From contig JAZLBO010000016.1 in the NCBI GenBank assembly GCA_045613765.1, forward strand, positions 40,265 through 104,264: a stretch of DNA of 64,000 nucleotides, given 5' to 3'. How positions within the stretch are numbered: position 1 is the first letter of the stretch; each line of letters opens with the position of its first letter. This DNA is from Clostridia bacterium. GTDB taxonomy: Bacteria; Bacillota; Clostridia; Christensenellales; CAG-917. The notes beneath the pieces are model-generated. The model was given only the letters and a program-made list of their open reading frames with translations, was not told the origin of the DNA and did no database searches. A program made the translations under genes and the position numbers. Shown piece after piece: positions 6,202-12,664 of the stretch.

Positions 6202-6850
6202 AAACTGCGCTATTTAGCGCCTGACTTCGGCAGATGCACCCACACGATTCTCACGTACGACAAGTACGCTGCGACCCGTGTAGGTTTTTCTTTCTCGTCA
6301 TCCATCCAAATATCGCAGTTTTACACGTTTCTAAATTGGCAGAGAGCAAACATATACCATATAAATTTGCGCTATTTAGCGCCCGACTTTGTTAGATGTA
6401 CTCACACGATTCTCACATACGACGAGTACGCTGCGACCCGTGTGGGTTTTTCTTTCTCGTCATCCATCTAAATATCGCAGTTTTTACACGTTGTTGAATA
6501 AGTTTACAGTGAAATCAAACAAAATCTTGGCTATTTAGCGCCTGACTTTGGACGCGATTGACGGCAAAGCCGTAGCAATGCGCTATTCCGTCACTTCATT
6601 CCTTACAGATTCAAGTCCACTACGTCAGTACGCTGCGACCCGTGTGGGTTTTTCTTTCTCGTCATCCATCTAAATATCGCAGTTTTACACGTTTCTAAAT
6701 CGGCAGAGAGCAAACATATACCATATAAATTTGCGCTATTTAGCGCCCGACTTTGTTAGATGCAACTCACACGATTCTCACGTACGTCAGTACGCTGCGA
6801 CCCGTGTTGGTTTTTCTTTCTCGTCATCCATCAAAATAATCGCAGTTTTT
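6201..6850. repeat. Array of four ~122-bp palindromic repeat units (approx. 6201-6322, 6363-6485, 6521-6686, 6727-6850) with ~35-40-bp spacers
   Basis: Units share GCTATTTAGCGCC(C/T)GACTT...AGTACGCTGCGACCCGTGT..GTTTTTCTTTCTCGTCATCCATC..AATATCGCAGTTTT; ends are inverted repeats. Confidence 0.95.
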
Positions 6851-11167: not shown

Positions 11168-11224
11168 AAAATCACCGCCTTATATTTTATGGTTATAATT
11201 TAACATAGGAGGTCGTAGTTGACA

Positions 11225-11241
11225 AGCAACTCGCCGTTGCT
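11225..11241. promoter_or_regulatory. Palindromic operator next to the -35 of the XRE/zinc-ribbon gene
   Basis: AGCAAC-TCGCC-GTTGCT immediately upstream of TTGTCA (minus strand). Confidence 0.5.
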
Positions 11242-11354
11242 ATCTGATTATCAAATCCTTATTTATGTTCGTTTTATTAAAGCATAAAAATCACATTTTC
11301 CCACGCGTTCACCTACTGTATAACCAAAAACTTTTGTTCCGTGGATACACCTAA

Positions 11355-11607
11355 CACGTATGGGTTCACACGCAAAGCGTGGTGCGATAGCACAAAGTCC
11401 CGAGATAAAAGAAAAACACCGAGAAAACTCGGTGTAATGGTGCAGTCGAAGGGCTTGTAGCAAACGTAGTGAGCGTAATAGCGAGAACGGTATGCTCGCA
11501 TACGTAAGGTCGAGCGCCAGCCATACACGTATGGGTTCACACGCGTAGCGTGGTGCGAAAGCACAAAGTCCCGAGATAAAAGAAAAACACCGAGAAACTC
11601 GGTGCTT
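11355..11607 (-). repeat. tRNA-Leu-linked tandem repeat, ~170-bp period, with duplicated tRNA 3' end at 11438-11453
   Basis: TGGTGCAGTCGAAGGG at 11438 and 11608; block CGTATGGGTTCACACGC..GCGTGGTGCGA.AGCACAAAGTCCCGAGATAAAAGAAAA.CACCGAG present twice. Confidence 0.9.
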
Positions 11608-11690
11608 TGGTGCAGTCGAAGGGACTTGAACCCATACGGTCACCCACTGGAACCTAAATCCAGCGCGTCTGCCAATTTCGCCACGACTGC
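11608..11690 (-). tRNA. tRNA-Leu (TAG)
   Basis: GCAGTCG..TGGCAGACGC, anticodon arm CTGGA-TTTAGGT-TCCAG, variable arm, GGTTCAAGTCC, encoded CCA. Confidence 0.95.
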
Positions 11691-11823
11691 GTTTATTTGC
11701 ATTGATAATTATAGCATAATACCAAAAAAAGTAAAGTCAATAGCATATTTCAAGAAAATTTTTAGAAATTTTGTAAAAATAGTTGCATTTTTCTAATTTC
11801 AGTGATATAGTTATCAATGCTGT

Positions 11824-11898
11824 GCGGGAGTGACTCAGTGGTAGAGTGTCACCTTGCCAAGGTGAAAGTCGCGGGTCCGAATCCCGTCTCCCGCTCCA
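11824..11898 (+). tRNA. tRNA-Gly (GCC)
   Basis: GCGGGAG acceptor, TCACC-TTGCCAA-GGTGA, CCA end; T-loop reads TCCGAAT. Confidence 0.93.
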
Positions 11899-11915
11899 CA
11901 GACCCATAAAATTGT

Positions 11916-11991
11916 GCGTCCTTAGCTCAGCTGGTAGAGCAACTGACTCTTAATCAGTGGGTCCCGGGTTCGAATCCCTGAGGACGCACCA
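11916..11991 (+). tRNA. tRNA-Lys (CTT)
   Basis: GCGTCCT acceptor, ACTGA-CTCTTAA-TCAGT, GGTTCGAATCC, CCA end. Confidence 0.95.
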
Positions 11992-12243
11992 AAAGCCACC
12001 GAAGTATCGGTGGTTTTTTCTTTATCCCAGGTCTTTATGCTGTCGCATTTTGCTGCGCAATCGAACCCGGGTGTCCCGGCTGACGCTCGGCTTTATTGAA
12101 CAAGTTCATCGCCTTGCTATTACACGAATCCCCGAGGACGCACCAAAAGCCACCGAAGTATTGGTGGTTTTTTCTTTGCTCAGGTCTTTATGCTGTCGCA
12201 TTTTGCTACGCAATCGAACCCGGGTATTCCGGCTGGCGCTCGG
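11992..12243 (+). repeat. tRNA-Lys-linked tandem repeat, ~154-bp period, with duplicated tRNA 3' end at 12125-12145
   Basis: CGAATCCC(T/C)GAGGACGCACCA + terminator GCCACCGA..GGTGGTTTTTT + CAGGTCTTTATGCTGTCGCATTTTGCT.CGCAATCGAACCCGGG present twice. Confidence 0.9.
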
Positions 12244-12313
12244 TATTGCTTTGCAGTGTGATGTATGGTATAATTTGTTGAAAGTAAGATAAAAAGGTTG
12301 GGGAGGGCTTAAA

Positions 12314-12664
12314 TTGATTTTCAAGGGTATTGCAAAAGAGTTTTCGTTGTTGAACGATGATCAATACAACACAATTGGCGATTTTTGGGATGAAATGGCT
12401 TTGATTTATGGTTTAGAAAATCTGCAAGGGCTTGGATACAAGTGGGCAGACGGCAAAATTTATTATGCCATAGGCTTGAAAGTTGGCGAGATAAGGGATT
12501 GCGACTTCACCATTGAATTGCCTGACGTTGGTTGGACTGTTGTCAATGGCAAAACAGGCGATCTCAAAGAGATTTACAACGAAATATACAAAAACGGCGC
12601 ACTCACATACGAAATAGAAACCTTTGACAACGACGGCGCTTGCCAAATCAAATATTATAGATAG
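12314..12664 (+). CDS. Small hypothetical protein, possibly GyrI-like effector-binding fold
   Basis: GGAGGG SD + TTG; IGDFWD..., YYAIG, IYNEIY, YEIETF pattern. Confidence 0.6.
   Translation: MIFKGIAKEFSLLNDDQYNTIGDFWDEMALIYGLENLQGLGYKWADGKIYYAIGLKVGEIRDCDFTIELPDVGWTVVNGKTGDLKEIYNEIYKNGALTYEIETFDNDGACQIKYYR

Follow-up and report, generated by a model that had tools for sequence, protein, structure and literature searches.

The locus that we describe here raises the question of what the gene-less repeats located behind two neighbouring tRNA genes are, and whether it is as RNA or as DNA that they act. The window, i.e. the whole stretch of DNA that has been analysed, is 64,000 nucleotides long and originates from the Clostridia bacterium CAG-917 (assembly GCA_045613765.1, contig JAZLBO010000016.1, positions 40,265-104,264 of the forward strand), whose genome we refer to as G000. 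The repeats occupy positions 11354-12243 of the window, where the tRNA genes have been located with ARAGORN and the repeats with a repeat search. According to the first-pass annotation, the same layout occurs about twice behind both tRNA-Leu and tRNA-Lys; the repetition is confirmed, with a spacing of 170-171 behind tRNA-Leu and of 153-154 behind tRNA-Lys, but each array consists of one full unit and one cut-off unit.

The unit is a gene-less repeat of approximately 150-170 bases, and each full unit contains four segments that are derived from the tRNA. Read in the sense of the tRNA, a terminator-like hairpin with a T tract is followed by an antisense copy of tRNA positions 58-67, by insert 1 and by an antisense copy of positions 49-57; after a short loop, there is a sense copy of positions 47-52, together with position 53 and T54, then insert 2 and, finally, a copy of positions 56-76 with the CCA. 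Insert 1 is composed of two mini-hairpins and is mostly 26-38 nt long, while insert 2, which replaces T55, has a length of either 41-44 or 54-62 nt. In the sense copy of the T-stem, the G of position 53 is changed to C in 68 of 84 units.

The host gene of the first array, tRNA-Leu(TAG), is located on the minus strand (11608-11690), and its array lies on the same strand, starting with a terminator-like hairpin and T tract (11578-11608). In the first Leu unit, the antisense copy of T-loop positions 58-60 and of the 3' strand of the T-stem (11566-11572) is followed by the two mini-hairpins of insert 1 (11540-11564), whose GNNA/GNA loops are found on the plus strand, i.e. the tRNA-antisense strand, and by the antisense copy of the 5' strand of the T-stem with loop positions 54-57 (11528-11539). 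The sense copy of the T-stem 5' strand (11520-11526), with G53 changed to C, pairs with this antisense copy, forming what we call hairpin B; insert 2 (11458-11519), in place of T55, carries an inner hairpin, a third hairpin and the conserved TGRCGYT ... CRCTATT scaffold, and is followed by the copy of positions 56-76 with the CCA, from which one base is absent (11438-11457). Past a second terminator-like hairpin and T tract (11408-11435), the second Leu unit (11354-11407) ends at the apex loop of hairpin B, beyond its antisense part. The second array is located on the plus strand, where tRNA-Gly(GCC) (11824-11898), which is internal to the operon and has no unit, precedes the host gene tRNA-Lys(CTT) (11916-11991) and its terminator-like hairpin with T tract (11991-12023). 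The first Lys unit consists of a degenerate antisense 3' half (12026-12031), the insert 1 hairpins (12037-12060) and an exact antisense 5' half (12061-12071), followed by the sense T-stem copy (12075-12080), insert 2 (12081-12124) and the copy of positions 56-76 with the CCA and one mismatch (12125-12145); after the second terminator-like hairpin and T tract (12145-12177), the second Lys unit (12178-12243) ends approximately 10 nt past T54, within insert 2.

The antisense T-arm matches that the first-pass annotation had reported hold exactly in both Leu copies (11566-11572 with 11528-11539, and 11395-11401 with 11357-11368) and in the 5' half of both Lys copies (12061-12071 and 12214-12224), but not in the degenerate Lys 3' half. 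The shared motif GGCTG(G/A)CGCTCG is likewise real, but its "GGC" belongs to the sense copy of the T-stem 5' strand (positions 47-52), the fourth tRNA-derived segment, which had been missed. A covariance model matches the two full units of the window with E-values of 7e-14 and 3e-13, both units having belonged to its training set, and the only Rfam family over the cut-off in positions 11200-12400 is tRNA; the RtT family (RF00391) has no match in the window.

Within G000, all 18 matches to the scaffold motif are located 89-468 nt behind a tRNA or tmRNA gene of the same strand and, therefore, they do not occur there by chance. A profile search of the genome has found 21 units behind 14 genes, with one to three profile matches, i.e. 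tandem copies, per gene, and one weak orphan match (E 0.037); when the units behind Tyr, Asn and Trp, which were read beside the profile matches, are counted, 17 of the 30 operon-terminal tRNA/tmRNA genes carry units. A covariance model of the 68-nt core matches 69 of 108 genomes of the family: units are present in all 11 other genomes of the same genus and in 46 of 52 genomes of another genus, while in an order-wide sample only six of 151 genomes have matches, just one of them outside the family. A scan of genome collections has returned 33 loci, of which five non-Clostridial chance matches were dropped; the remaining records are mostly labelled as uncultured Clostridia, Firmicutes CAG:475 or Christensenella sp., and some that are labelled as Bacteroidaceae or Butyrivibrio contain clear units too. 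Among 148 parsed units, 111 are located at most 600 nt from a same-strand tRNA or tmRNA gene, 23 are found at contig starts and 14 are more distant, several of the latter being situated behind islands that have displaced the tRNA end. In viral sequences, a first pattern scan gave 67 matches at about chance level, none with a tRNA, and a second scan gave three real units among 38, all at prophage ends behind displaced tRNA ends; hence, there is no sign of an autonomous form encoded by phages.

Related arrangements occur beside these units. The Ala(TGC) units, found at six loci (L114, L122, L134, L135, L142 and L146), are located inside an Ala-Ile tRNA operon and mostly have no antisense 3' half. 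Two further scaffolds, in which the antisense T-arm is unsplit and a copy of positions 56-76 is present, are interleaved with the split units in the trailers (L003:1966-2100, L011, L017 and L172; L205, L207, L235 and L285), and the GNA mini-hairpins of at least one of them apparently lie, like those of E. coli, on the sense strand. In G000, several tRNA terminators have another repeat behind them, a chain of hairpins (contigs C13, behind Pro and Gln, C20, behind Pro, and C21, behind Ala), and an element of about 120 nt is present in several repeats behind obgE in the window (6202-6850) and is kept in two related genomes, G002 and G007.

The shared scaffold with tRNA-specific arms, which had been proposed from the two arrays of the window, is borne out across the family, with the antisense segment tracking more than 20 tRNA types as well as polymorphisms within a type. 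When both antisense halves are compared together with all tRNAs, the own tRNA is strictly the best match in 61 of 90 units, ties in 14 and is worse in 15, where the misses include parse errors and near-identical T-arms. In the 84 cleanly parsed units, the identity to the adjacent tRNA is 0.89-1.0 for the antisense copy of positions 49-56, 0.79-0.96 for the sense copy of positions 47-52 and 0.91-1.0 for positions 56-64 of the 3' copy; for the antisense copy of positions 58-65 it is 0.79-1.0, falling to 0.5 by position 68, values that are inflated by best-match placement in 57 of the 84 units. At T-stem sites that vary within a tRNA type, the own allele is found in the antisense copy in 54 of 61 cases, as the proposed covariation with the adjacent tRNA predicts, and in the sense copy in 52 of 61. 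The 3' copy has its own tRNA as the strictly best match in 78 of 105 cases and extends to CCA76 in 55 of 78, the stop points of the early-stopping copies being scattered over positions 58-75. Related genomes are not independent in these counts, which overstates their significance.

The two T-stem copies follow the tRNA rather than each other: at positions 49-52, they drift jointly from the tRNA in only five of 40 discordant cells, and matches of discordant copies to the tRNA (21 + 14) exceed their matches to each other (5), while at positions 47-48 agreement with the tRNA is confined to the sense copy in 65 cases and to the antisense copy in three. The positions of the inserts in the T-loop (55; 57|58) are fixed across 20 or more tRNA types, and insert 1 is most alike within the same tRNA and stem, but is sometimes common to different tRNAs. 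These comparisons show that all four tRNA-derived segments track the cognate tRNA. Templating on the neighbouring tRNA, as earlier suggested, agrees with this tracking, but its strict form is countered by an exception, a Leu-type unit that is located behind tRNA-Gly on a short contig (L143).

The closest precedent is found in the tRNA-linked repeats (TLRs) of E. coli, i.e. the 178-bp repeats of tyrT and RtT, which are likewise gene-less tandem units behind tRNA genes that end in a copy of the upstream 3' end. According to PMC8144298, there are 22 such sequences, distributed over ten loci, whose last 18-19 bp (21 nt in the Clostridial units) repeat the 3' end of the upstream RNA; they are transcribed and processed, and no function has been known for them since 1978. 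For rttR, 10.1101/2024.07.17.603846 terms the mode of action unknown; other sources report covariation in RtT (PMC8250186) and list rttR as REP-containing (PMC12306157). We have found that in the E. coli tyrT/V, proK, serX and lysQ/V units, too, the antisense T-arm is split and is accompanied by a sense copy of the T-stem, both matching their own tRNA, and by GNA mini-hairpins, while in the shorter lys and arg units the antisense 3' half is all that is left of the antisense arm. PMC8144298 uses neither "T-arm" nor "inverted", and in the literature searched we have found no mention of an antisense T-arm or of DNA-type loops in TLRs, although Egan and Landy (1978), Rudd (1999) and Bosl and Kersten may mention them. 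The two groups differ in that the Clostridial units have two large inserts (at 57|58 in the antisense copy and at 55 in the sense copy) instead of one long insert and a 2-nt change, and in that their 3' copy starts at position 56 instead of 58-59. The RF00391 model recognises 17 places in E. coli K-12, but G000, G002, G007 and G020 contain no match to it at an E-value of 0.1. A described family with the same layout exists, but its model finds no unit in these four genomes. TLRs as a class lie within or behind tRNA or rRNA operons; located behind tRNA operons, in tandem copies, and with a 3' end that equals that of the upstream gene, the Clostridial units are, by their sequence layout, members of the TLR class and not of the RtT family.

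In hairpin B and the insert 2 hairpin, two-sided changes occur in all ten pairs and 83.5% of the cells are paired, versus 67.5% in shuffles, while the scaffold combines invariant bases with two-sided covariation in 10 of 15 pairs. The loops, in turn, distinguish the two strands. Among 130 insert 1 hairpins, triloops of the form c(G/A)NAg occur 73 times on the antisense strand and six times on the sense strand, with three at most in 500 base shuffles and a genome background of 5%; the antisense strand prevails in 20 of 23 tRNA types. The insert 2 loops of the antisense strand read gTTTAc (33), gCTTGc (14) or aCTTGt (7), together 54 of 68. Mini-hairpins of the type GCGNAGC/GCGNNAGC have, according to PMC13037366, a far higher stability in DNA than in RNA, and TTTA and CTTG are DNA tetraloops described in PMC9975016. 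Variable positions of the insert 2 stem show G.T on the antisense strand and A.C or C.A on the sense strand (47 and 28 of 84 units), while one invariant pair is of the opposite kind, with A.C on the antisense and G.T on the sense strand, and favours the latter; mismatches in the remaining stems have no G.T/A.C bias. The folding energy of the whole unit does not separate the strands (antisense better in 50 of 83 units as DNA and in 44 of 83 as RNA), and we have dropped it as an uninformative strand test. In E. coli RtT, the c(G/A)NAg triloops are located on the sense strand (26 versus 2), opposite to the Clostridial units, so that which strand folds is independent of the transcript. The strand bias of loops that are stable as DNA points to folded single-stranded DNA rather than to RNA. 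A bias of replication strand offers no absolute rule, with the Leu and Lys units lying in opposite directions at one locus.

The arrays change rapidly between closely related strains. In G002 and G007, the flanks are 95% identical and the tRNA block is 99.5% identical yet inverted, while the trailers differ completely; contigs of the sequencing runs X2 and X3 connect position 12244 with the Leu terminator and position 11353 with the Lys terminator, so the block is inverted there too. In all of these comparisons of the divergent Leu and Gly-Lys block (11354-12243, against L340 of G007 contig C2, L339 of G002 contig C17, and X2/X3), the inversion joints coincide with the trailer ends. The Lys unit is uncovered in run X3, where a contig gap is only a hint. 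Cut-off terminal copies end between -5 and +13 from T54 in 13 of 15 cases (one of the 13 being at +18 by the aligner and +10 by eye, and a further case having been excluded as a search-window artefact), i.e. spread over approximately 18 nt, with no single crossover base visible; at L181, L285 and L286, a different repeat starts directly after the TGA(C) of the TGRCGYT motif. The arrays at L285 and L286 are built from identical modules in shuffled order, genes are located between units at L156 and L225, and at L131, L206, L252 and L285 true islands have displaced units along with the tRNA end. Judged from these arrangements, i.e. the unit behind tRNA-Gly, the shuffled order, the interposed genes and the X3 gap, the units are mobile modules.

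Among the first downstream genes, a variety of accessory and defence types is represented. The Leu(CAG) array of G000 is followed by an HTH gene and a small gene that are located between direct repeats of a terminator (contig C6, 1400-2400; L092), and a similar pair lies between the Ser(CGA) units of L156. The Lys array of the window is followed by a small ORF (12314-12664) with no Pfam match, and a homolog of this ORF is located in another genome (L118) behind an array of the Val type, which suggests, as far as one shared ORF can, that cargo moves between tRNA sites.

The first-pass annotation had noted that no enzyme is encoded nearby, and it had also suggested looking for a co-occurring integrase, HUH transposase or reverse transcriptase (RT); the observation holds, none of these enzymes is linked to the units in G000 (97% complete), and none of the 89 first downstream ORFs that were scanned is a recombinase, transposase or RT (89 of 103, leaving out 11 near-duplicates, the RT described below and two long ORFs). 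In G000, no Y1 or IS110 transposase has been found, a GIY-YIG domain occurs only within a 630-aa frame, the single tyrosine recombinase is, from a reading of its sequence, presumably the housekeeping XerC, and the single serine recombinase adjoins tRNA-Val(CAC), which has no such unit. A stand-alone RT of 400 aa with a YSDD motif, below all NCBIfam cut-offs (contig C11, 21275-22477; L090:3776-4975), is convergent behind a tRNA-Ser(TGA) unit, has a 150-nt leader that looks structured and is possibly a defence RT; as the enzyme acting in trans it is ruled out by its distribution, as it is present in four of 108 genomes while units are present in 69. A link to Ssn-like GIY-YIG nucleases is ruled out at the 20 loci fetched, where the profile search finds no unit; one small GIY-YIG gene is closely followed by a tRNA-Arg that carries a divergent unit. 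Seven of these 20 genes (L323, L324, L325, L328, L331, L333 and L334), single-domain and Ssn-like, are flanked by a different, NTS/SRM-like hairpin repeat of their own, with the cGNAg loop style.

Integron attC sites and the CTX-phage attP are folded single-stranded DNA substrates of tyrosine recombinases, in which folding rebuilds a site. The Clostridial units resemble them in having inverted arms that are able to rebuild a duplex site from one strand, with a disrupted centre, and resemble integron arrays in combining empty and gene-bearing modules alongside variable accessory genes; they differ in that their arms copy approximately 25 different tRNA T-arms instead of one core, in that their inserts are multi-hairpin domains and in that no IntI-like or other linked recombinase has been found in G000 or among the 89 downstream ORFs. 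Prophages and genomic islands in tRNA genes are bounded by attL and attR with a duplicated tRNA 3' end, while the Clostridial units need no integrase or cargo and carry an inverted T-arm copy. Like Ssn/SRM and REP/RAYT repeats, they are non-autonomous hairpin repeats of a single-stranded DNA type, sharing the cGNAg loop style seen in this Clostridial family; those repeats, however, have a fixed sequence and flank their nuclease gene, while the units are tRNA-specific. Single-stranded DNA made by a retron or another RT differs in that no RT is generally linked to the units.

The explanation that we favour, at somewhat less than even chances, is that the units are Clostridial tRNA-linked repeats that act as a non-autonomous, attachment-like cassette of folded single-stranded DNA, inserted at tRNA 3' ends by a recombinase that would be supplied in trans. 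By analogy with attC and CTX, the antisense strand, once single, would fold back, and the inverted copy would rebuild a duplex T-arm from which both inserts bulge out of the 7-nt T-loop region, with three paired bases (58-60) beside the 3' stem; a single strand exchange with the template strand of the tRNA gene near 60|61, resolved by replication, would produce the observed order, i.e. an intact tRNA followed by units that each end in a 56-76 copy. Arrays would grow, shrink and shuffle through ordinary recombination between the repeats of 3' ends and terminators, and the cut-off ends would arise where copying comes to a halt at the folded domain. In favour of the folded cassette stand the anatomy, the tracking of the tRNA, the DNA-type loops of the antisense strand, the gain and loss at strain level and the cut-off ends near one motif; the identity of the 56-76 copy is equally compatible with homologous insertion. 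Against it, no dedicated enzyme has been found and one protein would have to accept approximately 25 different T-stems; furthermore, the folding energies are not strand-specific, one invariant insert 2 pair favours the sense strand, the stops of the 3' copies and the cut-off ends are scattered, and the sense strand of the E. coli unit is a detected RNA (PMC8144298 and 10.1101/2024.07.17.603846).

The refolding of the pre-tRNA by a read-through RNA, which had also been proposed, is indeed predicted by folding: in an RNA-level element of the RtT/RrA kind, read-through of the terminator would allow the antisense copy to capture the T-arm while the 5' acceptor strand of the tRNA finds its partner in the CCA copy further downstream, so that tRNA maturation would be down-tuned, or a CCA-ended small RNA or tRNA decoy would be released. 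Both transcripts of the window are predicted to refold (z -6.1 and -4.8), and in 39 of 44 first units the antisense copy is the main pairing partner of the T-arm, while the swapped acceptor stem reaches a probability of at least 0.42, likewise in 39; rebuilding of the T-stem in the downstream copy at the RNA level can be dropped, with a probability of at most 0.09. The allegiance of discordant copies to the tRNA instead of to each other, the transcription and processing of the E. coli TLRs and the Ala(TGC) units, which would be co-transcribed, as six of seven have no T tract within the Ala-Ile operon, all speak for RNA. Nevertheless, such refolding is a consequence of the layout and applies equally to single-stranded DNA, a T tract precedes 94 of the 98 other units, and the loop signature, with its strand flip between E. 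coli and Clostridia, favours DNA of the antisense strand and is left unexplained; in the RNA, the loop sequences become cUNCg/cUNUg and gUAAAc, which are not known as stable RNA loops, and the RNA runs, as contigs only, contained 0.05-0.07 of the words. We therefore regard an RNA element as rather unlikely.

The cut-off ends that cluster at the TGRCGYT motif, and the different repeat that begins directly after its TGA(C), are also what a REP- or SRM-like system would leave, where an HUH transposase or an Ssn-type nuclease recognises the antisense hairpins and nicks near the motif, with the T-arm copies guiding the repair into tRNA genes by base pairing or anchoring it by homology; Ssn cuts single-stranded DNA at hairpins, according to PMC11893778, and the Ssn-like genes of this family are flanked by repeats of the cGNAg style. 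Such a system is unlikely, given that G000 has no Y1 enzyme and its GIY-YIG domain lies only in the 630-aa frame, that none of the 20 small GIY-YIG loci has a unit and that the ends are not precise to a single base. A neutral origin, in which template switching by fold-back at the terminator hairpin duplicates and inverts the 3' half of the tRNA in tandem, the copies stay matched through quasi-palindrome correction and generic hairpin repeats are carried as passengers, would account for the direct-inverted-direct order centred on two hairpins, for the antisense sequence that reaches the CCA end in some units and for the fast gain, loss and inversion; it is already strained by the fixed T-loop positions of the inserts across tRNA types, by the invariant bases and covariation of the scaffold and by the sense copies at 47-48 that match the tRNA where the antisense copies fail, unlike the outcome of fold-back correction, and we consider it improbable.

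The earlier interpretation is, overall, partly supported. The units represent a sequence-unrelated Clostridial family with the four-segment T-arm design of the E. coli TLRs and with its stable-DNA loops on the opposite strand, a flip that makes the long-standing puzzle of the E. coli TLRs directly testable. A wider conjecture, which we regard as doubtful, is that the TLR/RtT repeats of enterobacteria and Clostridia form one undescribed class of programmable single-stranded DNA elements, in which two-strand T-arm guides surround a fixed scaffold and a single enzyme acting in trans may insert units, sometimes with cargo, at any tRNA or tmRNA gene, in the manner of an integron. If the DNA reading is true, the units would constitute a natural base-pair-guided system that reaches the tRNA genes, the main integration hotspots of bacteria, and would help to explain the rapid turnover of accessory and defence genes behind the tRNAs of gut bacteria.
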